A stretch of DNA of 64,000 nt from Dehalococcoidia bacterium (GCA_050011565.1 JBEKIW010000001.1:480001-544000); one strand, 5' to 3'; positions 17,820-56,991 are shown, counted from the stretch's first letter. The notes: generated from the sequence alone by a model not told the origin. Numbers and translations are program-made.

Positions 17820-17850
17820 ATGGTGGGCCTAAGTGTACAATAGACAGAAC
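17820..17850. repeat. Distal attachment site of the tRNA-Ile island
   Basis: Core ATGGTGGGCC is identical to 56933-56942. Arm TGTACAATAGACAGAAC (17834-17850) is the inverted repeat (15/17) of GTTCTGCCTACTGTACA (56914-56930). Confidence 0.88.
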
Positions 17851-17981
17851 TTTTCGTCTTCACTTCAGCCTATCTCGATAGCAGCCGATTACACAAAACA
17901 GGCTAATGTTCAAAGCACAACGATTGACACTTAGCCTGAATGTGGTATATCCTACGCTCAAATACAAAAGGGAGGTGTTTA

Positions 17982-18122
17982 ATGCAAGCATACTGTATGA
18001 AATGTAAAACAAAGAGGGAAATGAGTAATCCGAAAGCCATTAAGATGAAGAATAGCAGGCCGGCAACACAAGGTACTTGCCCAAAATGCGGAACTAAGAT
18101 GTTTAGGATTGGCAAGGGTTAA
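17982..18122 (+). CDS. DUF5679-type small basic zinc-finger protein (46 aa), copy 2
   Basis: MQAYCMKCKTKREMS...GTCPKCGTKMFRIG; SD GGAGGTG; TTGACA at 17924. Confidence 0.85.
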   Translation: MQAYCMKCKTKREMSNPKAIKMKNSRPATQGTCPKCGTKMFRIGKG

Positions 18123-18147
18123 ATCAATTTATTCTGAGATTCGACAG

Positions 18148-18182
18148 AGCTGGGTATTTGGGTACAAATGCCCAGCTTTTTT
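18148..18182 (+). terminator. Intrinsic terminator
   Basis: AGCTGGGTATTTG-GGTA-CAAATGCCCAGCT followed by a T tract. Confidence 0.8.
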
Positions 18183-18354
18183 ATTAAAACTGTACAATAT
18201 GGACAATTGTGTTATCGAGTGGGCCTTCGAAAATAAATTCTCTCAATTGAGTACATTACACTTTCTAAACTAAACTGTATATTTACGGCAACTAACCCCA
18301 AAACAAATTCAGAATAGCAAAGAACAGCTGCAGAACATGTTGCCTCTTAAACCT

Positions 18355-19248
18355 TTAAGGTGGTGTCACACTTACTGAAATCTGATAACCCTCTTTTGCA
18401 CCATTCTGAACCAATACATCGAAATCCCGAACCTCACCAGGCTTAAATGCTGCAGGTTGCAAGTCGATAGATCCTGGCTGATTAAATGTCCTACCCTCCA
18501 ACCCTTCTACTTCGTATTGTACCCAGATGGTTACATCAAGAGATGCTTGTGTAACTTCACCTGTGTTCTTAACTTTCCCACGAACATAAGTAAAAGTACC
18601 AGCTGGTGGATGCTGCTCAATTACTAGACGGTGCTCAATTATTTGAATCTCTGATTTTGATAGAGGCGCAATTTTCGTGAAGTGGGCAACCAAATCCTTG
18701 TTTGAGTCCATAGTTACGTTAATAACCAGCGATATGTCTGTAGAAGCACCACTCCAATGACTAAATGTGTAGCCGCTCGATGGGCTAGCCGTTACGCTTA
18801 TCTGTTCGCCTTGCTGGTACTGACCACTTGATGGAGATACAGAACCAGCACCAGAAGGGTTGACACTTGTACTGAGAGCGAAGGTAGCCGGAGGAAGTGT
18901 TCCTGCTGGGGGCGAGGGCTGAGCTGTAGAAGGAGGGGTGCTAGGTGCAGTACCTTGCGAAGTCATGCCAACAGCACAGGCTATTCCACCTATCAAAAGG
19001 ACGAGCGTCATCACGCCAAGACCCACGATAAGCCACGGACTCTTCTTTTTGCGCTGGTTTTCTATCTGCTGGCCATAGCCAGCTTGCTGCTGATGCGCCT
19101 GCCAACCAACTGATTGTTGCTGATATTGTGATGGAGGTTGGGGTTGCTGTTGCGCTGGCCAATTTAGCTGTGTTCTGCAATGACCGCAGAACCTGACCCC
19201 AAAAGCAACTGGAGCACCACAGTTAGGACACTGATACCACTGCTGCAT
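18355..19248 (-). CDS. Zinc-ribbon / TM / InlB B-repeat-like surface protein
   Basis: N-terminal CPNC..CGHC, Q-rich linker, one TM helix, and a P.GAGSVSP..G.Y..G...A.P..GYTF.HWSG repeat domain. Confidence 0.7.
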   Translation of the reverse strand: MQQWYQCPNCGAPVAFGVRFCGHCRTQLNWPAQQQPQPPSQYQQQSVGWQAHQQQAGYGQQIENQRKKKSPWLIVGLGVMTLVLLIGGIACAVGMTSQGTAPSTPPSTAQPSPPAGTLPPATFALSTSVNPSGAGSVSPSSGQYQQGEQISVTASPSSGYTFSHWSGASTDISLVINVTMDSNKDLVAHFTKIAPLSKSEIQIIEHRLVIEQHPPAGTFTYVRGKVKNTGEVTQASLDVTIWVQYEVEGLEGRTFNQPGSIDLQPAAFKPGEVRDFDVLVQNGAKEGYQISVSVTPP

Positions 19249-19852: not shown

Positions 19853-21283
19853 ATGGTTTTTAACATAACAGTCAAGAATTTCAAATCGATATCCTCTATT
19901 GACTTGGCACTCAAAGAAGGTTTGAACATTCTGATTGGCCCTAACGGGTCAGGTAAGACTTGCATACTCACTTCACTAAAATTCGTGCGTGATTTGTTTG
20001 TATTAGGGGCCGCACAAGCGACGGCAAGAAATGGAGGAGCCACACGTATATTCCGAAGAGGAGAGGATACAGTCTCATTCTCCATAGAACACGATTATGG
20101 TGACAGAGTATATCGAAAACGAAAATGGCCATGCACATTCTCTTGGAGAGTTGAGATTTCTCAGATGGGGCCAGAGAAGATTGCCGCCATAAAGTGTGAG
20201 GACGTGAGTATATATGCTAATGTGCGAGGCAAGCAAAAGCTTCTATTTCGCTTGAATGTTGACCGAGGAAATCCACAAAGCACTAAAACAATACTGCACC
20301 TATCTGAACCCCATGAATTCGGGCGTGACCTATTCTCACGGTGGAATAGGATGTTTTCATCCAAGTCAAAGAAAGACATACATAGTGAATTTGAGGAAAG
20401 AATGCTGCGGCTTATTATTAGACGGGCAAGAGTACGACCAGATGAGTCCGTGTTTCCACTCATTATGAGATTTGATGACAAACTTCAACATTTATATAAC
20501 CTCTTCTTCTATCTTAATGAATATAATATTCACCCTGATACCGCGCGACAATCCGCAGAGCGTCTGCCTTTCGCTAAAATGCAGCCAAATGGAGATGGGG
20601 TAGCTGAAGTAATCGACGCATTGGAGAAGAGGAGCTTTGATAGAATAGAGTTGGCCCGATATTATGGTATGGAAAGCTTTATGGGTTACGATTACCCCAT
20701 GACTGATTTTCCATATTATGCATACCCTCATCGTTATGATTACAGATTTCGGAGATACACTCCTACGGAACTGCAGAGAGTCTACAAACAGGCCTTCGAA
20801 AACATTAACAAGGAATTATCTGCAGCAGTAAAACCTATTGAAAGTGTAAGTGTTAAGATAGATGAGACTAACGGCAAGCGATTCGTCGTCTTTCGGGCAG
20901 GCAAGGAAACATTTTATCCGCAGGAAGTTTCTGACGGAACCATAAAATGGTTGTGTATTTTGGTTAGCATTTTTGTTCCATATTCCTCGGTTTATATACT
21001 CGAGGAGCCGGAGAACTTCCTTCACCCTTGGATGCAGCAACGATTAATCAGCATGATGCGAGAACATGCGAAGATAAACAATGCTATTTTCGTACTGGCA
21101 TCTCACTCGTCTACAGTACTCAATTCGGCGTTTGCCGAAGAGGTTCTTATTGTAAGTCAAACCAAGGATGGTACGAAAATCAACGAAATTGCTGATAAAG
21201 AAGAAATAGAGCGTGTTCTTCTGGAATCTGACTTCCGTCTTGGTGATTTCTGGGTAAGTGGCGCATTAGGTGGAGTTCCTTAG
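19853..21283 (+). CDS. ABC/AAA_21-type ATPase (defence-associated)
   Basis: NFKSI, Walker A GPNGSGKT, SDGT signature, Walker B LEEPENFLHP and SHS H-loop. Confidence 0.88.
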   Translation: MVFNITVKNFKSISSIDLALKEGLNILIGPNGSGKTCILTSLKFVRDLFVLGAAQATARNGGATRIFRRGEDTVSFSIEHDYGDRVYRKRKWPCTFSWRVEISQMGPEKIAAIKCEDVSIYANVRGKQKLLFRLNVDRGNPQSTKTILHLSEPHEFGRDLFSRWNRMFSSKSKKDIHSEFEERMLRLIIRRARVRPDESVFPLIMRFDDKLQHLYNLFFYLNEYNIHPDTARQSAERLPFAKMQPNGDGVAEVIDALEKRSFDRIELARYYGMESFMGYDYPMTDFPYYAYPHRYDYRFRRYTPTELQRVYKQAFENINKELSAAVKPIESVSVKIDETNGKRFVVFRAGKETFYPQEVSDGTIKWLCILVSIFVPYSSVYILEEPENFLHPWMQQRLISMMREHAKINNAIFVLASHSSTVLNSAFAEEVLIVSQTKDGTKINEIADKEEIERVLLESDFRLGDFWVSGALGGVP

Positions 21284-21284
21284 C

Positions 21285-21842
21285 ATGCGTAAGGTTGGCG
21301 TTATTGTAGATGGGCAAGGTGATTATAACAGTCTAAAGGCTCGATTTGTAGAAAATTGTAGGATTCTAAAGACAGACGGGCCGAGAAGCCATACTACTCC
21401 CATTGAAGCTATTGTGTTAGGTTCTCGCAAACAAATCTCCATGCTCAGGGCTTGCGGTTGCAACAAAGTAGTAATCCTAACTGATTTTGAAATGAGAACG
21501 GATGACTATGATCACTTCGTTGCTACGTTAAGAAGCCGATTAACTGCTCAGTATGCTGGAAATCGAGTCACTGCAGCTGTCCCAAATAGGATGATAGAAA
21601 ACTGGTATCTAGCTGATATTGAACAGTTGTCGAGTCAGAAATCCTTTATCATGAACAATTTAAGGCAGAAGAATTACGAAGGTTCGAATGGCAAAGATGA
21701 GCTTAAGAAGTGTTTTACAGGCAAACACTCATATAGCGAAACAATACACGGCCCCCAAATGTTCGAGATTCTCAGATTTCACATAGCAAGGCGTAACAGT
21801 GGCTCCCTGCATGACTTTCTTCTGATACTTGAAGGAAACTGA
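21285..21842 (+). CDS. DUF4276/TOPRIM-like partner of the ATPase
   Basis: IVDGQGD, ILTDFE and IENWYLAD motifs; starts immediately after the ATPase stop. Confidence 0.7.
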   Translation: MRKVGVIVDGQGDYNSLKARFVENCRILKTDGPRSHTTPIEAIVLGSRKQISMLRACGCNKVVILTDFEMRTDDYDHFVATLRSRLTAQYAGNRVTAAVPNRMIENWYLADIEQLSSQKSFIMNNLRQKNYEGSNGKDELKKCFTGKHSYSETIHGPQMFEILRFHIARRNSGSLHDFLLILEGN

Positions 21843-23693: not shown

Positions 23694-26600
23694 ATGATGA
23701 CTCTAAATATTAAACCCGGTCATAAATCGGTCAAAGCATACTATGAAGCTATCAGTAGCCTCTCTGACCTTGGTGTGGCACATGAAGGCGCTGTATCACC
23801 GGCTTTTGCCTCATTAATTCGCCATTGCGCCGGTCAATTCGACCAGACACTCATTGAGAAGTACCCCTTTAAAACTGGCACGCATACCAAATTTGTTGAT
23901 GGCGCTCTGGTCGACACGTTCAACCTTGTGCATGGCTATTGGGAGGCAAAGGATACCAGCGATGACCTCGACAAAGAAATAAAGAAAAAGTTTGATGCTG
24001 GCTATCCTAAGAATAACATACTTTTTCAAGCACCAGACCGTATTGTTGTATGGCAAGATGGACAAAAGGTCTTTGATGAGGATATCTCTAAGCCAGAACT
24101 TCTCATAGAAGGTCTAAAAGTCTTCTTCGAATACGAGGCACCTGCCTTTGAGCAGTGGCAGAAGGCTGTCGAAGAATTCAAACTCAAAGTACAAGAATTA
24201 GCCACCGGCTTGCTTGGACTCATCGAAAAGGAACGCCAAACCAACAGCCTTTTTATTCAGGCATTCAACGATTTTGTTCAACTCTGCCAGGAGACCATTA
24301 ATCCCAATATCTCAATTCAGGCTGTAGAGGAGATGCTTATTCAACACCTACTTACCGAGCGCATTTTCCGCAAAGTCTTTAATAACCCCGATTTCGTTGA
24401 ACGAAATGTCATAGCCCATGAAATTGAAAAAGTCATCTCAGCTCTGACATCGCAATACTTTAGCCGCAACGAGTTCCTCAAGCCGCTTGACCGCTTCTAT
24501 GTCGCTATTGAGACGACCGCGGCCACTATCGACGATTTCTCCCAGAAGCAGAGCTTCCTTAACACGGTTTATGAAAAGTTCTTCCAGGGCTTCTCAGTCA
24601 AAGTGGCTGACACACACGGCATAGTCTATACTCCGCAGCCCATCGTGAAATTTATAGTCAAATCCGTAGAGCATATCCTGCAAAAAGAGTTTGGGCGTTC
24701 TCTCTCCGATCAGGGGGTGCATATTATTGACCCATTCGTCGGCACCGGCAATTTCATTTTGTGGGTTATGCGGGAGATGCAGCGCTCAAGATTACCCTAC
24801 AAGTATGTCAGTGAGCTCCACTGCAACGAGGTCATGCTTCTGCCCTACTACATCGCCTCGATGAATATTGAGCATGAGTATTATGAGGCTACAGGAAACT
24901 ACCAGCCGTTTGAGGGAATCTGCCTTGTTGATACCTTTGACCTTGCTAAAGTAAAGCAACTCTCGTTTTTTACTAAAGAGAACACTGCGAGAGTTAAGCG
25001 GCAGCAGAGTACACCCATTTTCGTCATCATTGGCAATCCGCCTTATAACGCCGGACAGGTAAACGAAAATGATAACAACAAGAATCGTAAATACGAGGAA
25101 ATAGATAGGCGTGTTTCACAAACCTATGGAAAGGGTTCAAAAGCCACTTTACTCAGAAAATTGAACGACCCCTACGTTAAAGCTATACGCTGGGCATCGG
25201 ACAGAATCGGTGACGAAGGAATAGTAGCCTTTGTGACCAATAATAGCTTTGTAAATGAAATTACTTTCGACAGTATGAGAAAGTGTTTAGAAGAGGATTT
25301 CAATTCCATTCATATTTTAGATTTAGGTGGCAATACTCGTAAGAACCCGAAGCTATCCGGCACCACTCACAATGTCTTCGGCATTCAAGTAGGGGTAAGT
25401 CTTAATCTCTTTGTGAAGATGAAAAGTAAATTGCCCAAGAAGGCCAAGATATATTATGCCCGGGTCGATGAACTCTGGCGCAAAGAACAGAAGTACGATT
25501 TCCTTAATGAGAAGCAGTACTTTACCAATGTGCAATGGAAAGAAGTCATACCTGACAGAAACCATACTTGGCTAACCGAAGGCTTACGAAGTGACTTTGA
25601 AACATTCATGCCGGTGGCAAAACCGAAGGTAAAAGCGGGCGGACCTGAATCATTTTCTATATTCAATACTGTTTCGCCCGGTGTTAACACCGCCCGTGAT
25701 GCACTGGTTTACCATTTTAACAGGCAAAGTCTTGAGAAGAGCGCACAACAATTTGGCGATTATTATAACTCGGAAGTGTACCGCTATATCCAAAAAAATA
25801 AACCCCAAGATATTGATAGCTTCGTGAATTACGACCATATTAAATGGAGCAGAAATCTAAAACGGCATTTGAAGAATACCGATACATTCAATTTTGATAG
25901 ACAACGTATCCGTGCAAGCCTTTACAGGCCATTTACTAAGCTGTATCTGTATTATGCAGATATCATAGTGGATGAACCTGGTATCCATGAACGATTGTTC
26001 CCCCTTCATTCTGTAGATGAAAACCATGTGATTTGTGTGAACCTGTCTGGTGAAAAGCCATTTTGCTGCTTGATGTCAAATGTAATTCCGAACTTCGTCA
26101 TGTGTGGTGGTTTCGGCGCAGCTACCGCGTGCTTCCCCTTGTTCACGTACTCGGAAGATAGCACTAACCGGCAGGACAACATAACAGATTGGGCACTAAT
26201 TCAATTTCAAGAGCACTACCAAGACAACCATATTTCAAAGCTGGATATATTCCACTATATCTATGCTGTCCTACATCACCCTCAGTACCGTGAGAAATAT
26301 GCGGCCAATTTGAAACGCGAGCTGCCGCGCATACCTTTTGCCCCCGATTTCTGGGAATTCGCCAAGGCTGGGAAGCAGCTCGCAGAGCTTCATATAAACT
26401 ATGAAGGACAAACCGAATACCCGCTTACCTGGTTAGAAAATAAAGATGCTAAGGTAAATTATCGTGTAGAGAGAATGACCCTGTCCAAGGACAAAACGCA
26501 TATTGTCTACAATGACTTTCTCACTTTGGATGGTATCCCTCCGGAGGTTTTTGAATACCGTTTGGGCAACCGCTCTGCTCTCGATTGGATTATTGACCAG

Positions 26601-26750
26601 TATCAAATAAGTACCGATAAAAGAAGTGGCATAGTCAATGACCCAAACAGGGTCGACGACTCCCAGTACATCATACGTCTTATTGGTAAAGTAGTTTCGG
26701 TTAGCTTGAACACTGTTAAGATAGTTAATTCTTTACCCGGACTCTTTTAG
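23694..26750 (+). CDS. Single-chain restriction-modification enzyme (type IIG / ISP-like N6-adenine MTase with C-terminal specificity domain)
   Basis: N-terminal DG...WEAK nuclease motif, G..YTP, DPFVGTGNF, NPPY, and LlaBIII-like YRPF / LPRIP C-terminus. No helicase motifs. Confidence 0.88.
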   Translation: MMTLNIKPGHKSVKAYYEAISSLSDLGVAHEGAVSPAFASLIRHCAGQFDQTLIEKYPFKTGTHTKFVDGALVDTFNLVHGYWEAKDTSDDLDKEIKKKFDAGYPKNNILFQAPDRIVVWQDGQKVFDEDISKPELLIEGLKVFFEYEAPAFEQWQKAVEEFKLKVQELATGLLGLIEKERQTNSLFIQAFNDFVQLCQETINPNISIQAVEEMLIQHLLTERIFRKVFNNPDFVERNVIAHEIEKVISALTSQYFSRNEFLKPLDRFYVAIETTAATIDDFSQKQSFLNTVYEKFFQGFSVKVADTHGIVYTPQPIVKFIVKSVEHILQKEFGRSLSDQGVHIIDPFVGTGNFILWVMREMQRSRLPYKYVSELHCNEVMLLPYYIASMNIEHEYYEATGNYQPFEGICLVDTFDLAKVKQLSFFTKENTARVKRQQSTPIFVIIGNPPYNAGQVNENDNNKNRKYEEIDRRVSQTYGKGSKATLLRKLNDPYVKAIRWASDRIGDEGIVAFVTNNSFVNEITFDSMRKCLEEDFNSIHILDLGGNTRKNPKLSGTTHNVFGIQVGVSLNLFVKMKSKLPKKAKIYYARVDELWRKEQKYDFLNEKQYFTNVQWKEVIPDRNHTWLTEGLRSDFETFMPVAKPKVKAGGPESFSIFNTVSPGVNTARDALVYHFNRQSLEKSAQQFGDYYNSEVYRYIQKNKPQDIDSFVNYDHIKWSRNLKRHLKNTDTFNFDRQRIRASLYRPFTKLYLYYADIIVDEPGIHERLFPLHSVDENHVICVNLSGEKPFCCLMSNVIPNFVMCGGFGAATACFPLFTYSEDSTNRQDNITDWALIQFQEHYQDNHISKLDIFHYIYAVLHHPQYREKYAANLKRELPRIPFAPDFWEFAKAGKQLAELHINYEGQTEYPLTWLENKDAKVNYRVERMTLSKDKTHIVYNDFLTLDGIPPEVFEYRLGNRSALDWIIDQYQISTDKRSGIVNDPNRVDDSQYIIRLIGKVVSVSLNTVKIVNSLPGLF

Positions 26751-31142: not shown

Positions 31143-31210
31143 TTATTATTGGTTGCGTGAGTGTGGGGCGATTACACGACCCTATCTAAGTTTAACTAAT
31201 CCGTTAAAAA

Positions 31211-31675
31211 TTAACTCCGGCTGGGCAGTACAACGGTAGCCGTGCCCGGAGTCGTCACCTCGCCCTTGCCGTTTTCAATCCAGATATCGCAGTCCACGTA
31301 ATGCTGGCCACCCTCGTCGTATTTTTTTGTCACCTTCCCCTTGCAGTGCCAGGTATCACCCTCCTCGGGTGTAAACGGTGTCGCCATTTTGCGCGGCCAG
31401 TCCATCGCCCGGTAGCTACAGGAGAACTTCCTAAGCATCCCCTGCTCGCCCATCCAGTCGGTCATTAGCTGGACCAGCCACTGGCGTTTTAAGGCACCGT
31501 GGACAATCGGGCTGCCCACTCCCTGAGAAGCCGCAAAGGCGGCATCGTAGTGAAGCGGGTTGAAGTCTCCCGAAGCGCCAGCCCATTTAACCAGCATCAG
31601 GGTGGTAGCTACTTTAGGTAACGGCGTTACCTCATCGTTGACATTAACATCTTCCCAGAATTTCTGCTTTACCAT
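31211..31675 (-). CDS. MaoC-family dehydratase, catalytic subunit
   Basis: AGASGDFNPLHYD...HG hydratase-2 motif. Confidence 0.88.
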   Translation of the reverse strand: MVKQKFWEDVNVNDEVTPLPKVATTLMLVKWAGASGDFNPLHYDAAFAASQGVGSPIVHGALKRQWLVQLMTDWMGEQGMLRKFSCSYRAMDWPRKMATPFTPEEGDTWHCKGKVTKKYDEGGQHYVDCDIWIENGKGEVTTPGTATVVLPSRS

Positions 31676-31702
31676 CTATTTCCTCCTGAAAGTGATGGGG
31701 AT

Positions 31703-32474: not shown

Positions 32475-32499
32475 TCTATAATATTAATTTATTATTAAC

Positions 32500-33123: not shown

Positions 33124-33203
33124 CGTAAACGAAGAAGACTCAGAGGGCATAGGCCGTTTACAAATCCGCTCCAAAACTAGCAGAAGTGGAGGAAGGAGCT
33201 AAA

Positions 33204-43156: not shown

Positions 43157-43311
43157 GGTCGCTTTTGGTGAAGAATTACGAGAGAGAAAGGAAATACCTA
43201 ATATGAAAGGAGGGAGAAGGGGATGAAATTTCAGAACTCTAGGTGACTAGAAGGTTGACTTCTTAGATGACTACGGAGTGCTAGAAAGAAATAACACGCA
43301 CAAGGAGAAAA

Positions 43312-44547: not shown

Positions 44548-44910
44548 GTTGACATTCATTGGTTTCAGTTTTTCGGCAAATGGGTCATCCTTGCTCTTAA
44601 TGTACCGTTGTGTGTAGGTCTGTCAGAAGAACTGAATGGTGTCGTTAAGTTGTTCGCAAGCGATGACTTCGATTTCGTGGTTTCATTCCACGTGTTGAGG
44701 GCAGGGTGAGGATTATGTACATATAAAGAGATATTACGTATCAAGTTCCAGCTAAATGATGTGCAGGCGGGCATAAGCTGAATCTCAACAGCGCTGTGGT
44801 TTTCAATCACTAATGCTGCAAAGTGTTGAGTATCGCTATTGTCCTCCTCAAAACAGCTATGAACGTATAGTCGAAGAATCGCAATTAATATAAAGGGATA
44901 ATACAGCGTC

Positions 44911-45765
44911 ATGGTAACTTCGTTAGCCCAGGTCTTCATTAACGCACTAGAACTAGGTTTGATTTATGCCTTAGTGGCTTTGGGTTTTTCTCTAATTTAT
45001 GGTGTGGGGAGTGTGATATTCTGTACTCACGGTGAAGTGTACATGGTTGGCGCAATGTCCTCTTATTTCTTGACCACTAAACTGGGCTTACCGTTCCCTT
45101 TAGTGCTAATTTCAGTCGGTCTAGGCACAGGTGTCTTTGGCTTATTAATTGAGAGGTTCTTGTTTCGCCGGCTCCGCGGCAATGACTTCGCTATTTTTGT
45201 AGTATCGCTAGCACTAGCTATGGTTATCCTCAACTTGTTCTCAGAAATATTCGGGACTGAACCCGTTCGAGCTAACGAGCTGTTTTCTGGGTACATAGCT
45301 CCAATGGGTGTGAACCTTTCACTAGACAAGATGATAGTAGCACTAATCTCTGTTGGTTTGATACTGGGTTTACACGTCTTCTTTCAGCGAGTAAAGGTTG
45401 GGCAGTCCATGCGTGCCGTGGCGCAGGACCCCGAGGCGGCAGCTTTACAGGGAATTAGCATCAACAAGACCGTTTCACTGACCTTTTTCCTTTCCCTTTC
45501 CCTGGCAGGGGTGGCCGGAGTACTTGTGGCGCCTGTATTTATCATTAATACGGGGATGGGTACTTCTGCTCTCATGAACACTTTTGTGGTTGTAATCTTA
45601 GGTGGCATAGGAAGTTTTCCCGGCGCTATCGCTGGAGGTCTCTTTTTGGGTATTCTGCACGTCGTTGGAGGCCTTTTCATAGGAAAGTTTACCTTTCTCC
45701 TTAGTTTTGTGGCTGTTATCATTTTCTTAGTAGTAAGACCACAAGGATTCTTTGGCCATGAGTAA
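44911..45765 (+). CDS. livH: ABC transporter permease
   Basis: YALVALGFSLIYG, MRAVAQD...A.L.GI, LGGIGS..GA and RPQG motifs. Confidence 0.9.
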   Translation: MVTSLAQVFINALELGLIYALVALGFSLIYGVGSVIFCTHGEVYMVGAMSSYFLTTKLGLPFPLVLISVGLGTGVFGLLIERFLFRRLRGNDFAIFVVSLALAMVILNLFSEIFGTEPVRANELFSGYIAPMGVNLSLDKMIVALISVGLILGLHVFFQRVKVGQSMRAVAQDPEAAALQGISINKTVSLTFFLSLSLAGVAGVLVAPVFIINTGMGTSALMNTFVVVILGGIGSFPGAIAGGLFLGILHVVGGLFIGKFTFLLSFVAVIIFLVVRPQGFFGHE

Positions 45766-46765
45766 ATATGGTTTAATGAAACGTATCTCTGTTTTGACCC
45801 TGACGATCGTCTTGCTAGTCTTGCCAGTAGTGGTGCGTAATGACCAGTTCCTAGTACACGTTCTCATCATGGCAGGCGTTTACTGCATACTTGCTGTGAG
45901 TTTGCGTTTTGTATACTTGGCGAACATATGGCTTGTTGGTCCGGCTGCGTTTTACGCTATAGGAGCTTACGGCGTAACTTTGCTGATGCGTGCAATAGGG
46001 CTGTCATACTGGATTTGCCTTCCCTTGGTCGGCGTTGCAGTGGCAATTATTGCTTGGGGATTTGGGTACGTGACTATAAGAGTACGAGGCCTGTATTTCG
46101 CCATATTAAGTATAGCGTTTATCGAAGTTGTCAGATTGACATTTGTAAACACACTGGGTAACCAAATGCTATTAATGGTTCCTGCTCCTAATCCCATAAC
46201 AATTCCACATTTGTTTACAATAGATTTCGCCAGCAAGATGGACTACTACTACTTCATGTTGGCTTTGTTTGCGATAACCCTATTTATTCTGTTCAGAGTG
46301 GAGAGGTCACCAATCGGGGCAAACTTCAAGGCTATTACAGAGAGCGAATTATTAGCCGAAAGCCTTGGCATAAAAGTCGTACGACATAAAGTCTTAGCAC
46401 TCTGTATAGCAGCTTTTTTTATTGGCATAGCAGGTGGTTTTTTCGCTCCCTATAATCAAACTATAAGCCCGGAGTCTTTCACAATTGGGGCTTCAATGTT
46501 GGTCTTGATTCTGATGGTCGTTGGAGGGACAGGTTCCATTTGGGGGCCAGTGATCGGTGCTACTGTTCTAACAATTTTACCAGAGTATCTCCCTGTTAGC
46601 CCTATTGTCGAGAATTCAATTTATGCGGTGTTTGTAATCCTTATTCTTTATTTTCTGCCAGGCGGTCTTGTAAGTCTCCCTAATGTTATTACAGGACAGG
46701 CTTGGTGGCAAAAAACCAAGGAGGCAAGAAATAACATGCTGGCTCGTATACGTAGGGGGTTCTGA
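45752..46765 (+). CDS. livM: ABC transporter permease
   Basis: AAFYAIGAY, RVRGLYFAI, GG.GS.WGP..GA and P.GL motifs. Confidence 0.9.
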   Translation: MAMSKYGLMKRISVLTLTIVLLVLPVVVRNDQFLVHVLIMAGVYCILAVSLRFVYLANIWLVGPAAFYAIGAYGVTLLMRAIGLSYWICLPLVGVAVAIIAWGFGYVTIRVRGLYFAILSIAFIEVVRLTFVNTLGNQMLLMVPAPNPITIPHLFTIDFASKMDYYYFMLALFAITLFILFRVERSPIGANFKAITESELLAESLGIKVVRHKVLALCIAAFFIGIAGGFFAPYNQTISPESFTIGASMLVLILMVVGGTGSIWGPVIGATVLTILPEYLPVSPIVENSIYAVFVILILYFLPGGLVSLPNVITGQAWWQKTKEARNNMLARIRRGF

Positions 46766-46893
46766 TAGTGACTCAGATCTATCATGTTAGAGCGCCTTGT
46801 GGGTTCCTTAGTGAATTTGCAAGCAGCTTATAAGTGGAACTCAAGTTTTATGAAGTCAAGGAAATCAACAAGATTAAGGAGGTAAATAGTAGC

Positions 46894-48099
46894 ATGAAGA
46901 AGATTATAGTATTGGGTGGGGCGGGTTTTATGGGGTCTGAAATAGTTTACCAATTAGTCCAACGTAGCGATGCCAAGATAATTATTGCTGATGCCAATCT
47001 AAGTAAGTTACAGCAGTTTGGTCAGACTAAGCACGAAGCTAGAAAGATAGCTCTCAATGAGCTGAAAGAGAGGGTGGCTACAGTTGCTATAGATGTTGAG
47101 GACTTCAATAGTTTGGTTCATTTGATTAGAAACGCAGATCTGGTAGTCAGTGCTATTGGGCCATTCTACAAGTATGCCAGTAAAGTAACTAAGGCTAGCA
47201 TTGCGGCTGGAGTAAACTTCATAGACATAAACGACGACTATGATGCAACCAAAGAGGTGCTTTCTCTAAATGAGGAGGCAAGAAAAGCAGGCGTTACTGC
47301 GGTAATAGGATGTGGGGGGAGCCCAGGAATGACAAACATGCTAGCAAAATATGGTGCCGACAAAATGGAGAGAGTAGATGATATTCGCATATTCTGGGCA
47401 GAAAGTGGCATAGACCCAACAGGGCCTGCGGCTGTAACTCATTGGTTCCATATCACATCGGGAGACGTTCCCATGTTTATTGAGGGAAATTGGGTTAATG
47501 TTAAAGCTTTATCGGGGCCCGAAGTTGTAGAGTTTTCTCCTCCGCTTGGTAAGATTGAAGTGCGTTATACAGGCCATGCCGAACCAGTGACTTTGCCACT
47601 CTATATAAAAGGGGTGAAAAACGTAACTATTAAGGGTGCGCTTTTTCCGACTCGTATGATGGAGCTCTATAAAATCTTGACTGAAGTTGGCTTTACAAGT
47701 CTAGAAAACTTCACAGTAACAGAGAAATTATCCGTGCCTCTTAGAGAATTAACGACTAGGATTGTCCGGGCTCTTGGGCATTTCAATCCAGCATATTTCG
47801 AAGCCATGTCTGAGGAGGTATCAAAAATATACCAAGACTCTCCGGGAACAACAAGGGTCGAAGTAACTGGTAAAAGGGATGGAGAAAAAGTGCACTATGT
47901 TTATGAAAGTACGATTGATTCAGTAACTCTTGGTACAGCTATACCTGCGGCAATTGGTGCTCTTATGATTTTGGATGGTAAGGCTAAGGGAACGGGTATT
48001 TTGGCTCCAGAGGGCGCTTTTGACTCTGGTCTATTTATCTCGCTGGCCTCTAAGGACGTGCGGGTACACGAGACAGAAACAAGAAAAAGGGCAATATGA
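46894..48099 (+). CDS. Saccharopine-dehydrogenase-like oxidoreductase 3
   Basis: GGAGFMG, GPFYKY, GGSPG and HAEPVTLP motifs; SD AAGGAGGT before ATG 46894. Confidence 0.88.
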   Translation: MKKIIVLGGAGFMGSEIVYQLVQRSDAKIIIADANLSKLQQFGQTKHEARKIALNELKERVATVAIDVEDFNSLVHLIRNADLVVSAIGPFYKYASKVTKASIAAGVNFIDINDDYDATKEVLSLNEEARKAGVTAVIGCGGSPGMTNMLAKYGADKMERVDDIRIFWAESGIDPTGPAAVTHWFHITSGDVPMFIEGNWVNVKALSGPEVVEFSPPLGKIEVRYTGHAEPVTLPLYIKGVKNVTIKGALFPTRMMELYKILTEVGFTSLENFTVTEKLSVPLRELTTRIVRALGHFNPAYFEAMSEEVSKIYQDSPGTTRVEVTGKRDGEKVHYVYESTIDSVTLGTAIPAAIGALMILDGKAKGTGILAPEGAFDSGLFISLASKDVRVHETETRKRAI

Positions 48100-48124
48100 A
48101 TTTTGTTTAGGAGGTAAGTAAGAA

Positions 48125-48877
48125 ATGGATTTCTCTTTGGAAGGTAAGGTGGCTCTGGTGACCGGTGGCAGCCGTGGCATCGGTGAGGCTATTGCCTTGG
48201 GGTTGGCCAAGGCTGGTGCTGATGTTGCCATAGCCAGCCGTAAGCTGCCTGAACTGGAGAAAGTAACTGAAAAGATAATTGGATTGAGGAGAAAGTCGTT
48301 GGCTATAGCCGCGCATGTAGGCAAGCTCGAAGAAATAAACAATCTGGTTGGCAAGGTCAAGGCTGAGTTTGGGAGGATTGACGTCCTGGTGAATAATGCT
48401 GGTACCAACCCGACTATGGACCAGGCTATAGACATAGAGGAGCGTGCTTGGGACTCCATTATGAACCTCAATTTGAAAGGTTTGTTCTTTCTCAGCCAGG
48501 TAGTGGCCAGGCTAATGAAGGAACAGGGTGGAGGCAAGATTGTAAACGTTGCCTCAGTAGCTGGAATTACCCCCGATATATTACCAGTTTACTCCATCAG
48601 TAAAGCTGGGGTGATCATGGCGACTAAGGTCATGGCGCAGCAATGGGCTAAATACAATATTAGGGTGAATGCCATAGCGCCGGGACTGACCAAGACCCGC
48701 TTCAGTGAAGCTCTTTGGAATAATCCAGAGGTCCTAAAGGGTGCAATGAGCACACTTCCTATGAGGAGGGTAGCCGAACCAGAAGAAATGGTAGGAGCTG
48801 TCATTTACCTAGCCTCCGATGCCTCTAGCTATGTAACCGGGCAGGTTCTCGCCATAGACGGTGGTGCCACTATATGA
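48125..48877 (+). CDS. Short-chain dehydrogenase/reductase (DHRS4-like)
   Basis: TGGSRGIG, NNAG.NP and YSISK motifs. Confidence 0.92.
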   Translation: MDFSLEGKVALVTGGSRGIGEAIALGLAKAGADVAIASRKLPELEKVTEKIIGLRRKSLAIAAHVGKLEEINNLVGKVKAEFGRIDVLVNNAGTNPTMDQAIDIEERAWDSIMNLNLKGLFFLSQVVARLMKEQGGGKIVNVASVAGITPDILPVYSISKAGVIMATKVMAQQWAKYNIRVNAIAPGLTKTRFSEALWNNPEVLKGAMSTLPMRRVAEPEEMVGAVIYLASDASSYVTGQVLAIDGGATI

Positions 48878-49171
48878 ATTGGCTGTTGAAAAACCGAGTA
48901 GTGGCCTGTCGGCAAGCAAGCAGCCATGGTAGTGGTTATCCCAGGATGGGACAAATCGGTATGATTGGTAGCCATAATTTAGAAAGAAACAGAGAATATA
49001 GCTAAGTGCCTGACAGGTTTCCTGTTGAAGGATAATACCCTTTCAATAGGCTAGCGTTGCTGATATGTGAGAGAGATGCGGTCATGACAAGCGGGTCAGG
49101 TGTGAGCTGGCCCGTGTTTCGAAATTACGCGTTTCTTACAGAAATAAAGAGAAAAGGAGGTCGAAAGGAAA

Positions 49172-50707
49172 ATGGAGTGTTATCCATGGTGGAACGAAAC
49201 TCAGAAGAAGCTTGCTGAAGAGGTAAAGGCGGTTACAGACGAAGTACTGATTCCGTTGGGTGAGAGATGTGCCTGGAAAAAGGAGTTTCCTTGGGAAGCG
49301 ATAAAGGAGATGGCTAGAAGGGGGTGGTTTGGGGCGCAAATCCCGGCCGAGTACGGGGGTCGGGCAGAGGAATGGGGAGTCACCGGTGCCTGCATCATAC
49401 TGGAGGAGACAGGACGGGCTGGTGAAATATCTTTACCCTTAGCATGTACCATGCAAGGTGGTATTCACCAGATTATTCACGATGGAACCGATGAGCAGAA
49501 GAAGCGATGGCTCCCAAGGATTGCTAAGGGAGAATTACTCGGTGCTATAACTATGACCGAGCCGTATGCTGGTTCAGACATAGCAGGTATAGAGACCACT
49601 GCTGCCAAGGATGGCGATTATTACATCGTCAATGGAAAGAAGAGATTCCAGACCTCGGCTGCAGCAGCAGATATATACATGACCTACGTAAAGACCAGCG
49701 ATAAAGCCGAGGATATAGCCAAATATTGTCACCTTACTGGTTTGATCATTGAGAAGGGGACACCTGGGTTCACGATCGAAAAGGTCAACGATCTCATGGG
49801 GATGGATGGAATATATAATTGCTACCTTAACTTCGACAATTCAGCGGTACCGGTAAAGAACAGAATAGGTGCAGAGGGTTCCGGCTGGCAAGTGATGACA
49901 AGTGGTCTGAACGTAGAGAGAACTCTCGACGCGGCTGCACCACTGGGTTCGATGCGAGAGGCGATTCGATACGCCGTGCAGCACTTACAACGGAGAGTCC
50001 AATTTGGTCAGCGGACGGGAGACATGGCAACAAATCAGTTTAAGGTTGCCGATATGATCTGGAAGCTGCAACTGTCAAGACTACTGACATATTATACGGC
50101 GTACTGCCTTGACCTTGGCAGAGAAGTACCATTGGAAGCAGCAATGGCAAAGATGTACATTACCGATAGCACCTTGCAAACTGCAATTGAAGCTATCCAG
50201 TGTATGGGAGGTAATGGAGTTACCCGGTACTATCCTGTCGAGAGGATTATGAGAGATGTAAAGCTAATGCAAATTGCTGCTGGCACCAACGAGGTGGCGA
50301 GACTTCTCATTTACAGGCAGGGGTTGAGGAGCCTGATGCCAGATTTGAAGGTTCCAGCCAGAGTTATAGACGATGCGCTTAAGGTGCCAATGCCTTTAGG
50401 AAAGGCACCGCCACCAAGGTTATGCTCAAGTGAAGATGATGTCATAAAAGTACTTGGAGAGGAATACCGGATTAATCCAGGGCTGCACATGACAATAGAG
50501 GACATCAAAGGGCTGTTGGCTGTGAACGATGAAGACCTTAAAAAACATCTAGTCAGTCTGGAAAAGAAGGGGTTGGTCAGCCTATATCGGGATAGACGTG
50601 GCACAATCGCCTTAGCTAGGGCAACCTATAAAGGATTAGCTCAGGCAAATCCCCCAGAGTATTACAAATACATCCCAGAATGGGTTGCTAAGAAGGACAT
50701 ATTCTAA
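49172..50707 (+). CDS. Acyl-CoA dehydrogenase with ~120-aa C-terminal extension
   Basis: TEPYAGSD, NGKK.F, R.QFG, GGNG and GTNE motifs, plus an extra winged-helix-like tail. Confidence 0.88.
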   Translation: MECYPWWNETQKKLAEEVKAVTDEVLIPLGERCAWKKEFPWEAIKEMARRGWFGAQIPAEYGGRAEEWGVTGACIILEETGRAGEISLPLACTMQGGIHQIIHDGTDEQKKRWLPRIAKGELLGAITMTEPYAGSDIAGIETTAAKDGDYYIVNGKKRFQTSAAAADIYMTYVKTSDKAEDIAKYCHLTGLIIEKGTPGFTIEKVNDLMGMDGIYNCYLNFDNSAVPVKNRIGAEGSGWQVMTSGLNVERTLDAAAPLGSMREAIRYAVQHLQRRVQFGQRTGDMATNQFKVADMIWKLQLSRLLTYYTAYCLDLGREVPLEAAMAKMYITDSTLQTAIEAIQCMGGNGVTRYYPVERIMRDVKLMQIAAGTNEVARLLIYRQGLRSLMPDLKVPARVIDDALKVPMPLGKAPPPRLCSSEDDVIKVLGEEYRINPGLHMTIEDIKGLLAVNDEDLKKHLVSLEKKGLVSLYRDRRGTIALARATYKGLAQANPPEYYKYIPEWVAKKDIF

Positions 50708-50984
50708 GTTAATCTCAGTAAAGTATGCCTGGTCAGGTTGAAAATACAGCCTTTTCCTGTAAGTGATATATCCTAAGGAAGTTCGGGAACTCTCCATGCT
50801 GCTCAATAATCAATTGATACAGAACGGGAGCGAGCACTGGTTCCGATCGACCACCTAGTGACCTATCGGCAGGCACTGGAGGGAAAACTGGCCGTAATGT
50901 TCATTAAGAGTTGAATTGAGTATTATTCACGAGGCGCGACTGCAATTCTAAATCGTACCAATTCTGTTTCAAGGAGATATTAAC

Positions 50985-52166
50985 ATGAAAGGTGCACTAG
51001 CAGGTGTTACGGTTCTAGATCTCACTCAAGTTCTGAATGGACCTTTTGCGACAACAATGCTTGCCGATCTGGGAGCCGAGGTCATCAAAGTTGAACCTCC
51101 TGAAGGAGAAGTGGCAAGAGCCGCCCCTCCCAAGATTGGAAATGAGTCCTACCCATTTATGCAACTTAATCGCAACAAGAAAAGTGTCACCCTGAACCTC
51201 AGAAGCAAGCAAGGGAAGGAAATCTTCAACAGACTGGCAAGAAAAGCGGATGTGATAGTTAACAACTTCTCACCGGGAACAATGGACAAGATGGGGCTCA
51301 GCTATCAAGAGTTGAAAAGAATAAATCCTCAAATTATCTATGCGTCCAGTTCTGGATTCGGGCAGAATGGGCCTTACTCTTCGCGAAGAGCCTACGATCC
51401 AGTGATCCAAGCTGCTTCAGGTATAATGAGCCTTACCGGCTATCCAGATGATCAGCCCACTAAGGTTGGGCCCAGCATTACTGATTTCATGGGTGGCATG
51501 ATGACCGCTTTGGCTATTGTATCTGCGCTGTATTATCGAAAGGAAACTGGGAAAGGTCAGGAAATAGATATCTCAATGCATGATATTGCATGCAGCATAA
51601 CCCTAGAGTTTTGGGCAGATTATCTTGTAGGCGTCAAGGTCCCACGGCGAGTAGGAAATGAGGATCCTAACGTGGCACCGGCCAACGGCTATGCTGCTCG
51701 GGATGGATACGTGATGATTTTTGCAGGTTTCGATCATGAGTGGGCCAGGCTAGCGAAAACTATGGGAAAAGAAGAGCTAGTCGACGACCCGAGATTCTCG
51801 AGTGCAGAAGCTAGAGTGCGACACCGAAAAGAAGTAGATGCCATAGTGGCGGGATGGGTAGCAAGCAAATCTGTCGAAGAACTACTGAGTGAGCTTGATA
51901 ATGCAAAGGTGGTCTCTGGGCCAGTTCTTAACCTTGAGCAGGTGCTTGACGACCCTCATGTCCGGTATCGTGGAATTATGTCTGAAATTGACCACCCTGC
52001 CGCGGGTAAAGTGAAGGTACTTGGCCCATTGATGAAGTTTTCGCGGTCGCCAGCAGAAATAAGGTCTCCAGCTCCTCTTTTGGGGCAGCACAATGCAGAG
52101 ATTCTTAACGAGCTAGGCTATAGTACTCAGGAGATCGTGGAGCTTCGAAAAAGCGAAGTAATCTAA
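50985..52166 (+). CDS. Family III CoA-transferase (CaiB/BaiF)
   Basis: GPFAT..LADLGAEVIKVEP, NRNKKS, SGFGQ.GP, YD and APLLGQH motifs. Confidence 0.92.
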   Translation: MKGALAGVTVLDLTQVLNGPFATTMLADLGAEVIKVEPPEGEVARAAPPKIGNESYPFMQLNRNKKSVTLNLRSKQGKEIFNRLARKADVIVNNFSPGTMDKMGLSYQELKRINPQIIYASSSGFGQNGPYSSRRAYDPVIQAASGIMSLTGYPDDQPTKVGPSITDFMGGMMTALAIVSALYYRKETGKGQEIDISMHDIACSITLEFWADYLVGVKVPRRVGNEDPNVAPANGYAARDGYVMIFAGFDHEWARLAKTMGKEELVDDPRFSSAEARVRHRKEVDAIVAGWVASKSVEELLSELDNAKVVSGPVLNLEQVLDDPHVRYRGIMSEIDHPAAGKVKVLGPLMKFSRSPAEIRSPAPLLGQHNAEILNELGYSTQEIVELRKSEVI

Positions 52167-54362: not shown

Positions 54363-54385
54363 GGCCGAAATCACCCGATATCGCC

Positions 54386-54478
54386 AAAGTAGCATCTTGT
54401 CAGACAGTTGTCAAGTGATATCATGCCTAAATAATACATCCCACAGCACTTGACAACATATGGTAACTATGCTATTAT
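54386..54478. promoter_or_regulatory. Back-to-back symmetric sigma70 promoters of the integration module
   Basis: Rightward TTGACA(54450)-17-TATTAT and leftward TTGACA(54414)-17-TACTTT, both TG-extended. The -35 boxes sit in a perfect 11-bp inverted repeat. Confidence 0.7.
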
Positions 54479-54518
54479 TTCAGCAGCAAATACCATTTTG
54501 AACCTGAGGAGGATGAAC

Positions 54519-55343
54519 ATGGTCAAACGCACCAAAAAACCACCGGTCCCACCCGAGAAGGCCAGGGAGTGGCTGCGGCGCCTTGAAGATAGAGGGGAAT
54601 CTGTGCCGCAGATTGCCAAAACGGATTACTACGATGTCAGGACGGTGCGGAAGCAGGTGGAAAAAGCTAGAGAGGAACGGGACCGACGGCAGTCAAGGCA
54701 GATGGTGCTGCGGGAGGCGCTGGAAATGCACTATGCTGATCTTTGCTCCTTGGCCGAGAAGATAAGGGCCGATCTGATAAGAAATACCCCTTCAAGTCTG
54801 TCGCTGTCACTGAGAGATGATCCGCTATATGAGGCTCTCAAGAAGCATGTGCCCAAACTGCGCGTCTGGAAAAACATTGAGCGGTTGGGGACCATGGAAG
54901 TTGAGTTTCGCGAGGTCGCAACGAACTTAAGACAGCGTATTGCCGCTGAAGCGGGAGAGAGTCTATCGCTGCCAGTTGGCGTAGAACCAGGTAAATCGGG
55001 ACTTGATGAGGATTTCGTCAAGGCAATGCTATCCCACCTAGTGAATAAGGCAAGTCGCGGGCAGGGCCTTGATGACCAGGCTTACAAGACCGTCCCCACA
55101 GATTCGGGAATACGGCTGGAGCGCGGCGTTTTTCTCATAGCGCTGGCACCAAAGGTACGGGTCAAAAAGATACAAACTACGTTTGACAGGATGATGGTCG
55201 AGGCACTGGCATGGGAGGAATATCTCCACATGTCCGGGATTGTGTCCGAGTTCTACCAGATCCTGTCCAAGGTGAAAGATGAGCTCACTAAAATAATTCT
55301 GACGCGGGTGGTACCAGGGAGGTGTGATTACTGTCCGATTTAA
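54519..55343 (+). CDS. Integrase-associated hypothetical protein with N-terminal HTH-like region
   Basis: GESVPQIAK....DVRTVRK HTH-like segment and C-terminal GRCDYCP; SD GAGGAGG; co-oriented upstream of the integrase. Confidence 0.7.
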   Translation: MVKRTKKPPVPPEKAREWLRRLEDRGESVPQIAKTDYYDVRTVRKQVEKAREERDRRQSRQMVLREALEMHYADLCSLAEKIRADLIRNTPSSLSLSLRDDPLYEALKKHVPKLRVWKNIERLGTMEVEFREVATNLRQRIAAEAGESLSLPVGVEPGKSGLDEDFVKAMLSHLVNKASRGQGLDDQAYKTVPTDSGIRLERGVFLIALAPKVRVKKIQTTFDRMMVEALAWEEYLHMSGIVSEFYQILSKVKDELTKIILTRVVPGRCDYCPI

Positions 55344-55401
55344 CAGGGAATGCGGACTACGTGGTATCGTGAGACAATAATCCATTGCTCGGAGGCATGT
55401 C

Positions 55402-56991
55402 ATGAAAGCAGCAATCTACGCTCGAGTGTCATCGGAGAAGCAGGATATCGAACTCTCAATATCAGCGCAGCTGAAAGCGTTACGCGAATACGCGGCGCGA
55501 AACGGTTACGTTGTGGTAAGAGAATTTGTAGACGAGGCGGAGAGCGGCAAGACTTCATCCCGTCCTCAATTTATGGAAATGATTGCCACTGCCAAACGTT
55601 CTTCAAAACCTTTCGATGTCATACTCGTCTGGAAGTATTCCCGCTTTGCTCGTAACCGACAGGATTCTATTGTGTTTAAGACGATGTTGCGAAAGATGGG
55701 AGTCCAGGTGATATCGATCAACGAGCCGGTTGAAGATACGCCAACCGGCAAGCTTACTGAAGCAATCATAGAGAGCTTGGACGAATTCTACTCGGCGAAC
55801 CTGGGCGAAGAGGTTACTCGTGGTATGAGGGAAAGCGCCTCACGAGGGTTCTACATCGCCAGCTACACCCCGTATGGATATAGGCGAATAAGAGTAAGGG
55901 ATGGTGGTAAGGAGAGACCAAAGCTGGAACCTGAACCGCATGAGGCTGAAGTTGTAGTTAGAATGTTCAGGGAAGCCCAAGACGGAAAAGGTCTAAAAGA
56001 AATCCTCAAAGGTCTGAACACAGAAGGTATCAAAGCACCCAGAGGTAAAGGATGGATAAAAACCACTCTTTATCACATACTCTGCAACGAGGCTTATACT
56101 GGCTGCCTGGTCTGGGGCAGAAATAACATCAGGAAATTACCTACCATCCGTGTGGAAAGCGCCTGGCCAGCGATAATCGATAAAGATGCTTTCTTACAGG
56201 TGCAAAGCATACTTAAAAGTCGAGCACCGGCATATCTTCACCCCAAACGAACCGCCAGCAGTTTTCTACTTAGTGGAATCGCTAAATGTGGCTATTGCGG
56301 TAAAGCTCTCGTCGGCAACAACGCCAAGAGTGGAAGATTCAGCTATTACGTCTGCGGAAGCTTGCTCAAGAAGGGATCAGGCGCTTGTAACACCAGATAT
56401 ATCAACAGCAAGGATTTTGAGACACTAGTGATTGACAAAATAAGGGAACATATCTTGACTGAAGACAATTTGCGAGAACTCGTACGTCTGGTAAATGAAG
56501 AGATGGATTCTCTATCTACAGAATATAGGGCAAATCTTGACACCGTTAACTGCGAGATTATGGATGTCGATAAACGTCTGGACAGATTGTACGATGCGAT
56601 CGAGACCGGAAGATTAGAAGACACAGACATAGCACCACGTATAAAACAACTCAGGGAACGCCGAGATAACCTACAAAATAGAAGGTGGGAGCTTGAGTGG
56701 CAGTTAAAGGACCGGAAAGTCGAGCTTGCCGATCTACAAACCGTAAAGCGCTACGTCGATGATCTTAGAAGCCTACTAAGCGACGGTTCTATCATTGAAA
56801 GAAAGTCGTTTATCAAGAGCTTTGTCAAAGAGGTTAAAGTCACAGGGAACCAGGCATGCCTCACCTATACAATTCCAATTTCAAAGGGAGGCACGACGCA
56901 GGAACAGATCGCGGTTCTGCCTACTGTACAACATGGTGGGCCATTGTGGACTCGAACCACAGACCCCGGTCTTATCAGGACCGTGCTCTAA
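55402..56991 (+). CDS. Large serine recombinase (integrase)
   Basis: YARVSS, SRFARN, PYGY, CGYCG...YYVC zinc ribbon and coiled coil. The last codons run antisense through tRNA-Ile. Confidence 0.95.
   Translation: MKAAIYARVSSEKQDIELSISAQLKALREYAARNGYVVVREFVDEAESGKTSSRPQFMEMIATAKRSSKPFDVILVWKYSRFARNRQDSIVFKTMLRKMGVQVISINEPVEDTPTGKLTEAIIESLDEFYSANLGEEVTRGMRESASRGFYIASYTPYGYRRIRVRDGGKERPKLEPEPHEAEVVVRMFREAQDGKGLKEILKGLNTEGIKAPRGKGWIKTTLYHILCNEAYTGCLVWGRNNIRKLPTIRVESAWPAIIDKDAFLQVQSILKSRAPAYLHPKRTASSFLLSGIAKCGYCGKALVGNNAKSGRFSYYVCGSLLKKGSGACNTRYINSKDFETLVIDKIREHILTEDNLRELVRLVNEEMDSLSTEYRANLDTVNCEIMDVDKRLDRLYDAIETGRLEDTDIAPRIKQLRERRDNLQNRRWELEWQLKDRKVELADLQTVKRYVDDLRSLLSDGSIIERKSFIKSFVKEVKVTGNQACLTYTIPISKGGTTQEQIAVLPTVQHGGPLWTRTTDPGLIRTVL
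56914..56942. repeat. tRNA-proximal attachment site
   Basis: Arm GTTCTGCCTACTGTACA plus core ATGGTGGGCC overlapping the tRNA CCA end. Confidence 0.88.

Follow-up and report, generated by a model that had tools for sequence, protein, structure and literature searches.

A 39-kb island at the tip of a tRNA-Ile gene in a Dehalococcoidia bacterium and its serine integrase, whose conserved last codons appear to be detached by integration

We analyzed a 64,000-nucleotide stretch of the genome of a Dehalococcoidia bacterium (GCA_050011565.1, JBEKIW010000001.1:480001-544000; hereafter the window, with positions counted from its first letter). It holds a 39.1-kb integrative island inserted at the 3' tip of a transfer RNA (tRNA) gene, tRNA-Ile(GAT), and at the edge of the island beside this tRNA lies a large serine recombinase gene, the integrase, whose open reading frame (ORF) runs across the island boundary. 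The features on which the analysis turns are these:

17830..56942, no strand: whole island, 39,113 bp including one core copy
17820..17829, no strand: attL core, the left copy of a 10-bp identity, a displaced copy of the tRNA-Ile 3' tip
56933..56942, no strand: attR core, the right copy of the 10-bp identity
56934..57010, minus strand: tRNA-Ile(GAT), the integration target, intact (ARAGORN, Rfam)
55402..56991, plus strand: large serine recombinase gene in its integrated form, 529 amino acids, with Resolvase, Recombinase and Zn_ribbon_recom domains
56914..56932, no strand: P arm of attP, inside the integrase ORF, encoding VLPTVQ(H); sequence GTTCTGCCTACTGTACA at 56914-56930
17830..17850, no strand: P' arm of attP, TAAG plus TGTACAATAGACAGAAC, the latter at 17834-17850
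17831..17881, plus strand: detached last 16 codons and stop of the integrase (KCTIDRTFRLHFSLSR, then stop), which continue the reading frame of the gene only if the island ends are joined

The window contains exactly two copies of the 10-bp core, ATGGTGGGCC, and none of 100 dinucleotide-preserving shuffles contained two matches to it. The identity between the two copies is confined to these 10 bp, with not one extra base at either end. The right copy is the antisense of the last 9 nt of tRNA-Ile (GGCCCACCA, encoded CCA included) plus one base, and this tRNA gene is the only one in the window. The pattern of arm plus core is found once in the whole 2.0-Mb genome, at the right core copy.

Sequences of relatives show the site without the island. 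The two flanks (left, 15600-17819; right, 56934-59000) were each used to search 41 related genomes, including the window's own. One genome (G012) had the two flanks about 100 bp apart on a single contig, with a homologue of ORF202 followed by tRNA-Ile, and in another (G011) the Rieske-protein gene, which ends at 17703 in the window, was followed after about 150 bp by tRNA-Ile. We also compared contigs from four public sequencing runs with positions 15500-20500. In run X4, which comes from a separate study, a 381-nt contig matches 17467-17829 with 3 differences, and beyond 17829 its 18 letters, ATTGTGGACTCGAACCAC, are exactly those found from 56943 onward, after the right core copy, on the tRNA side. 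This contig is the empty attB of a near-identical strain, with the break precisely at the core. A 409-nt contig of run X6 has a match that likewise ends at 17829, and in both runs the depth is zero over the island cargo at 18339-19173 and 19675-20500. Contiguous synteny across 17820 was seen in none of the relatives; the X4 contig, G011 and G012 all have the empty arrangement. As a separate observation, the left end of the island (17838-18171) stood at raised depth in other samples that lacked the cargo.

The integrase has the domain set of its class, with an N-terminal catalytic domain (PF00239, E 5.8e-34, residues 3-149) and further matches to PF07508 (2.4e-23) and PF13408 (2.1e-13); among solved catalytic domains there are weak sequence matches to TP901-1 (3bvp, 1.3e-11) and to 9iu2 (1.1e-05). 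Its ORF crosses the core and ends in VQHGGPLWTRTTDPGLIRTVL, and the last 58 nt of the ORF (56934-56991) are antisense to tRNA-Ile, so that residues 515-529, the last 15 codons, are read from the antisense tRNA strand. When the island ends are joined, the P and P' arms, which are complementary at 15 of 17 nt, flank a 16-nt center to give a 50-bp site, whose midpoint is the GG within the core (17825-26 and 56938-39). The ACAATAGnnAGAAC motif of the P' arm is found again at the distal ends of related islands, and the attP of the family is an imperfect palindrome of about 50 bp within the 3' end of the recombinase gene; because of this position, the last 16 codons are left behind at the opposite end of the island on integration. 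The initial annotation had placed the core at 17820 and 56933 and inside the integrase ORF, had described a symmetric attP on joining the ends, and had read the integrated C-terminus from 58 nt of the tRNA antisense strand, all of which our analysis bears out.

It had further proposed that the enzyme, once excised, would take its C-terminus from the frame at 17822-17881. From the left core copy this frame indeed reads GGPKCTIDRTFRLHFSLSR and then meets a stop at 17879-17881, and the 2.0-Mb genome has the tail motif at this position only. Since the tail frame lacks its own start codon, it is translatable only as the end of the recombinase. An independent small ORF was considered and rejected, as the island part contains no in-frame start and the other ORFs lie in other frames. 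A search pattern made of the tRNA tip plus the P' arm led to the distal ends of islands in many genomes of the order. Within the window and 30 fetched loci there were 21 matching sites with frames of the form GG..TI[GD]RTFxLxFxLxx, and the stop falls at the same codon in 17 of the 21. A metagenome scan for contiguous arm-core-arm sites gave at least 118 loci, with 117 tails that reach a stop; among the matches listed, 68 of 117 span exactly 26 residues from the V of VLP onward, which places the stop at the same codon, with the motif TI[GD]RTFxLxFxL, and 15 of 117 have 29 residues, mostly through a short in-frame insert after TIGRT. In a second island, from run X3, the tail is SLTFNLAN after RTF, followed by a stop.

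The codon pattern of these tails points to a protein-coding constraint. Pooling gave 131 sites, or 124 distinct 120-mers (the metagenome part being the matches listed), of which 76 have the stop at codon 20, as TAG in 32, TAA in 28 and TGA in 16. These 76 sites comprise 75 distinct tails, which keep F-x-L-x-F-x-L. The information at codon positions 1, 2 and 3 of these 75 tails is 0.54, 1.60 and 0.16 bits for Leu13, 1.80, 2.00 and 0.83 bits for Phe15, and 0.93, 2.00 and 0.02 bits for Leu17, and it falls to about 0.1 bit at every position beyond the stop; defining the class by its stop predetermines that column only and does not affect the pattern before or after it. A fixed second position, a free third position and three different stop codons at one position argue for selection on residues rather than on DNA, and by this pattern the orphan frame is a genuine coding segment, selected at the protein level throughout the family. 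With 16 codons selected in this way, the circular form would encode the native 530-residue enzyme, and the chromosomal form, as predicted from its ORF, encodes an enzyme that lacks the conserved F-x-L-x-F-x-L tail. We think it probable, with moderate confidence, that the full-strength enzyme is made only from the free circle and that the resident copy is attenuated or altered.

The same codon data bear on the most skeptical explanation, namely that attP merely overlaps the end of the gene, that the change of C-terminus is a neutral by-product, and that the tail is conserved as DNA, whether as an extended attP, a promoter or a site for an accessory protein. The arms of attP must indeed be conserved as DNA, the first 7 codons of the tail are the P' arm, and the tail is short and disordered in a structure model. 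Beyond the arm, however, the second codon position is fixed and the third is free, and the use of three stop codons at one position, the in-frame inserts and the end of conservation at the stop largely refute this explanation, which we consider very improbable.

A comparison of C-termini among the 120 best database homologues shows what integration does to the enzyme. Nearly all of them end in tRNA-antisense tails, ranging in length from GGR to more than 40 residues, and the integrated tails share no common sequence or length; the meaningful difference is therefore between a tail that is present in the circle and one that is absent from the chromosome. By pattern match, P0091 (530 residues) is the only homologue among the 120 that carries the FxLxFxL tail contiguously; by eye, P0010, P0063 and P0106 have a variant, ETFF[ED]L[ST]I. 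The tail of the window thus resembles the C-termini of homologous elements, in the stop codon shared by most distal ends and listed metagenome junctions as well as in P0091. In six other homologues of the 120 (P0019, P0045, P0047, P0050, P0082 and P0105) we observed a second conserved tail, GGPWGTVPELLFEKKxLIPxLQQL, which may represent another class of P' arm or a protein-coding target. An AlphaFold2 model of P0091, built from an alignment of 70 rows, 15 of them tail-bearing fragments, has a mean predicted local distance difference test (pLDDT) score of 81.8, with the catalytic, recombinase, zinc-ribbon and coiled-coil parts as expected and coiled-coil helices at 354-402 and 407-440.

The initial annotation suggested that two integrase isoforms could set directionality or stability. 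In a bolder form of this idea, these C-termini could also be read as a built-in switch of direction, in which element topology would dictate the reaction to the enzyme: the native tail favors attP x attB or blocks attL x attR, and its loss licenses excision, either alone or with a partner protein encoded beside the integrase:

54450..55343, plus strand: conserved partner gene of 297 amino acids directly upstream of the integrase (tblastn, 37 related loci)

Such a switch would fit a selected tail that is present only in the state that must integrate, and integrated tails that run from GGR and a stop to more than 40 residues, so that presence or absence of the tail is the informative state. It would also fit, as far as the accessible part of a phiC31 preprint goes, the contact made by the phiC31 directionality factor with acidic residues at the extreme C-terminus of the integrase, and a paper whose title is 'Control of serine integrase recombination directionality by fusion with the directionality factor' (PMC5737554). 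Against it, the tail is predicted by the model to be disordered, and known large serine recombinases set their direction through the coiled coil and a separate factor, for which there is a conserved candidate neighbor here. We regard a switch of this kind as possible but rather unlikely. The 297-residue protein is possibly an accessory or directionality factor, a candidacy suggested by its conserved position; it has no Pfam, PHROGs or protein-atlas match above noise, only weak helix-turn-helix hints.

The contiguous arm-core-arm sites in metagenomes (L085-L202) were considered as excised circles and rejected as such, the integrase genes upstream of them being truncated or absent. Among the matches listed, none of the 40 sites with at least 1600 nt upstream retains a full-length in-frame recombinase, the longest upstream frame being 187 codons, and 39 of 118 hold only 3' fragments that match residues ~290-330 to 513-521 of P0001. 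L093, L098, L104, L139 and about 17 more have the arm GTTCTAGGTATCGTCCCCTT (encoding VLGIVPF) with a semi-conserved module of about 90 nt upstream and no recombinase homology, and this class could be an integrase-less satellite or a remnant that keeps a usable site. The simplest reading of the contiguous sites is that islands lie stacked there and that the older element, farther from the tRNA, has decayed, so that the tail found at a junction comes from the element on the opposite side. Another possibility is that intact upstream genes are missing because a gene rebuilt with its native tail is active and removes itself.

A further explanation is a 'suicidal' integrase in the manner of SSV, which would be inactive without its tail, so that the inserted copy is dead and exit occurs only with another copy of the enzyme or when a second adjoining island supplies the tail. 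The absence of a full-length in-frame integrase at the 40 junctions is what would be expected if rebuilt genes excise, McMurdie et al. raised the same idea for dsiB in the available text of their paper (PMC3146451), and the SSV precedent is described in the portion available of PMC7253208. The loss, however, amounts to 16 residues only, all downstream of the recognized domains, the integrated genes are intact across many species, and the decayed upstream genes are perhaps just old islands in stacks. We judge a dead resident copy unlikely, more so than a switch of direction.

The arrangement in the window is one instance of a wider family. A search with P0001 gave matches at E <= 1e-40 in 40 of 201 genomes of the order. 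At 23 of the 30 best loci the recombinase gene overlaps a convergent tRNA gene with its 3' end (Ile 9, including this window, Ala 9, Leu 3, Lys 1, Glu 1); the other 7 have no tRNA and lie mostly at contig ends, and no transfer-messenger RNA was found in these 30 best related loci. At all 23 tRNA loci the arm consensus, GTTCTnnCTATTGTAC, starts 20 nt before TGGT(G/A)G, the antisense of the CCA end, and the arm begins with GTTC in 22 and GTTT in 1; the contiguous metagenome sites, at least 118, share this consensus. A second set comprised 80 loci from species-representative genomes, whose titles are nearly all those of Dehalococcoidia or Dehalococcoidales metagenome-assembled genomes, with 2 Dehalogenimonas and few other labels. 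The arm abuts a tRNA gene in 44 of the 80 (Ala 19, Val 10, Ile 8, Leu 4, Met 1, Lys 1, Glu 1); a further 14, with diverged arms, have an ARAGORN tRNA on the strand opposite the integrase at any distance (Asn 5, Ala 4, Asp 2 and one each of His, Leu and Ile), and the rest are 14 of other kinds, 7 without a tRNA and 1 with a contiguous native tail. Elements moved by large serine recombinases of this family are common in Dehalococcoidia, and the family targets 7 tRNA species where the arm abuts the tRNA, probably 11 if the elements with diverged arms, assigned by their neighboring tRNA genes, are counted. Beyond the window, a related serine recombinase survives as a decayed fragment (G000:C1:195754-196858, 26-34% identity, internal stops), and C6 and C4 hold two further serine recombinase genes that are more distant.

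A feature common to all these targets may be what the enzyme reads. In the P' arm an AGAAC motif (17846-17850) starts 26 nt from the TGG of the core, and in every tRNA target CGAAC, the antisense of the universal T-loop (here 56953-56957), starts 20 nt from TGG. We infer that CGAAC could serve as the outer recognition motif of the tRNA half-site, 6 nt nearer the center than AGAAC, with the crossover placed at the central GG, at tRNA positions 71-72. Recognition of the T-loop would explain both the use of tRNA tips and the hopping between tRNA species.

On the preferred reading, of a full-strength enzyme made only from the free circle, the integration-competent 530-residue form would be produced from the circle alone, following the logic of the IntP/IntX system of Mx8, for which Tojo 1996 and Magrini 1999 are said to be the cited sources. 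After insertion the resident gene would yield a weakened or altered enzyme, from an mRNA that runs head-on into the tRNA gene, and both effects would stabilize the inserted state. Excision would then depend on the weakened form together with an accessory protein, possibly the 297-residue neighbor.

Several observations weigh against this reading. Residues 509-530 of P0091 have a pLDDT below 50 and are predicted to be disordered, and the monomer model shows no intramolecular docking site for the tail. The integrated copies of the integrase are full-length uninterrupted ORFs in many genomes, which suggests that the tail-less form is useful and not merely crippled. In the source genome a GTTCG-like motif is not clearly visible in the B arm. 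Among the run contigs none joins the island ends as an attP circle would; contigs drop rare forms, so the missing circle contig is not evidence against excision, and in the probable source run the single loose contig end before 17820 is unrelated sequence rather than a circle. Domain searches of the island found no recognizable relaxase, secretion or transfer genes, so present-day mobility is inferred solely from the empty site in the close strain, and that site could be ancestral. We nevertheless place the circle-only enzyme first, followed in order by a tail that sets direction, a resident gene that is dead by SSV logic, and a tail with no function. A broader proposal, which we put forward tentatively and consider doubtful, is that the tail senses topology, switching the enzyme between an integrating form and one that is excision-permissive or silent, and that the family reads the universal T-loop and CCA tip and is retargetable through a few changes in how the acceptor stem is read. 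If this were true, the family would be one of naturally retargetable, self-regulating serine integrases.

The closest described layout is that of the ssrA islands of Dehalococcoides, as the initial annotation recognized, which are moved by the serine recombinase DsiB (McMurdie et al. 2011, PMC3146451, from the accessible part of the paper). Both systems have a large serine recombinase (about 540 amino acids in DsiB) at the island edge in the same host class, both target a tRNA-like 3' end, and in both the last part of the integrase gene overlaps the att repeat, the stop codon lying outside the island. The likeness is one of layout. The target here is tRNA-Ile, with other tRNAs in relatives, whereas DsiB targets ssrA; the ssrA islands, as described in that part of the paper, carry a six-gene module of DsiB, DsiA, a RecF-like protein, ParB, Mom and an RNA-polymerase-domain protein with an embedded tRNA-like locus, whereas the conserved neighbor here is the single 297-residue protein, and Pfam detected no DsiA-, RecF-, ParB- or Mom-type domains in the genes beside the integrase (52691-55343). 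McMurdie et al. suggested that dsiB is perhaps fully functional only on the circle or beside a second island; their alignments of DsiB diverge over the ssrA overlap, and the accessible text mentions no conserved distal fragment (PMC3146451). In the present family, by contrast, the detached piece is conserved coding sequence by its codon pattern. The design of the ssrA islands extends here to tRNA tips, and the piece at the far end, a point left open in 2011, proves to be real, selected coding sequence.

Two other systems place attP within the integrase. In Mx8 IntP/IntX, according to the portions available of PMC6070905 and PMC4383910, integration gives the gene a new 3' end and alters its behavior, which resembles the change of C-terminus seen here; Mx8 Int, however, is a phage tyrosine recombinase, whereas the enzyme described here is a serine recombinase of a non-phage island, with 16 residues exchanged. 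In SSV-type suicidal integrases (Badel et al. 2020, PMC7253208, available in part) the recombination site likewise lies within the ORF, the gene is split on integration, and target specificity varies across the family; unlike our case, these are archaeal tyrosine recombinases split into two inactive pseudogenes, whereas here all recognized domains of a serine recombinase stay in one 514-residue piece. SSV, like Mx8, is cited in print as a case of an integrase that extends across attP, in the text accessible to us.

Compared with the large serine recombinases of phages (phiC31, Bxb1, A118, SPbeta and TP901-1), the enzyme has the same domain set and coiled coil, and a palindromic attP of about 50 bp with a non-palindromic central dinucleotide. 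In familiar cases of phage-type large serine integrases attP lies outside the coding sequence. The targets of the phage enzymes, too, differ from those of this family in not being tRNA tips. In the available text of the phiC31 preprint the zinc-ribbon domain undergoes a 5-bp register shift on attB, and the outer motif here is similarly nearer the center on the bacterial site, by 6 nt against the 5 bp of phiC31. Serine integrases were not known to target tRNA genes according to the accessible part of the Islander paper of 2014, and a tycheposon preprint, in its available portion, notes large serine recombinases as a minority among tRNA-associated elements and does not describe the layout. A literature search, which did not cover subscription journals, found no paper on serine integrases that target tRNA tips and have a conserved detached C-terminus. 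Serine integrases are leading tools for the insertion of large DNA, and their choice of direction is under active structural study; a natural family whose enzyme has its C-terminus edited by insertion would, if our reading is true, offer a simple, testable state switch, and its likely recognition handle, as suggested by the target sequences, is a motif common to all tRNAs.

The cargo of the island is mainly defensive and metabolic in its recognizable genes:

17940..18122, plus strand: first island gene, DUF5679 zinc-ribbon protein (Pfam PF18930, E 5.9e-16)
19853..21842, plus strand: two-gene defense pair, an AAA_21/AAA_15 ATPase and a DUF4276 protein, HEC-01 / PARIS-like
23694..26750, plus strand: Type ISP / IIG restriction-modification enzyme
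30174..52166, no strand: catabolic block of 22 kb, from domain matches

The ATPase and DUF4276 pair scores best with PADLOC HEC-01A/B, and AriA of PARIS was matched too. The catabolic block contains a phosphotriesterase, MaoC dehydratases, TetR, an acyl-CoA ligase and three saccharopine-dehydrogenase-like genes, together with hydantoinase A/B, a branched-chain-type ATP-binding cassette transporter, a short-chain dehydrogenase/reductase, an acyl-CoA dehydrogenase and a CoA-transferase. The remaining genes include a Hypoth_Ymh protein and several small unknown genes, and domain searches found no phage structural genes among the island genes. A prophage, prompted by a strong GC skew at 33-51 kb, was considered and rejected, the genes there being metabolic. 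In Dehalococcoidia, a class with organohalide-respiring members, the family appears to be a main vehicle of defense and catabolic genes.

Two minor observations concern paralogues of the cargo genes. A second DUF5679 zinc-ribbon gene, which is chromosomal, lies at 15250-15474. The saccharopine-dehydrogenase-like genes include a tandem duplication at 34921-37562, with copies 1451 bp apart that are 71-77% identical, and a third paralogue at 46834-48099.

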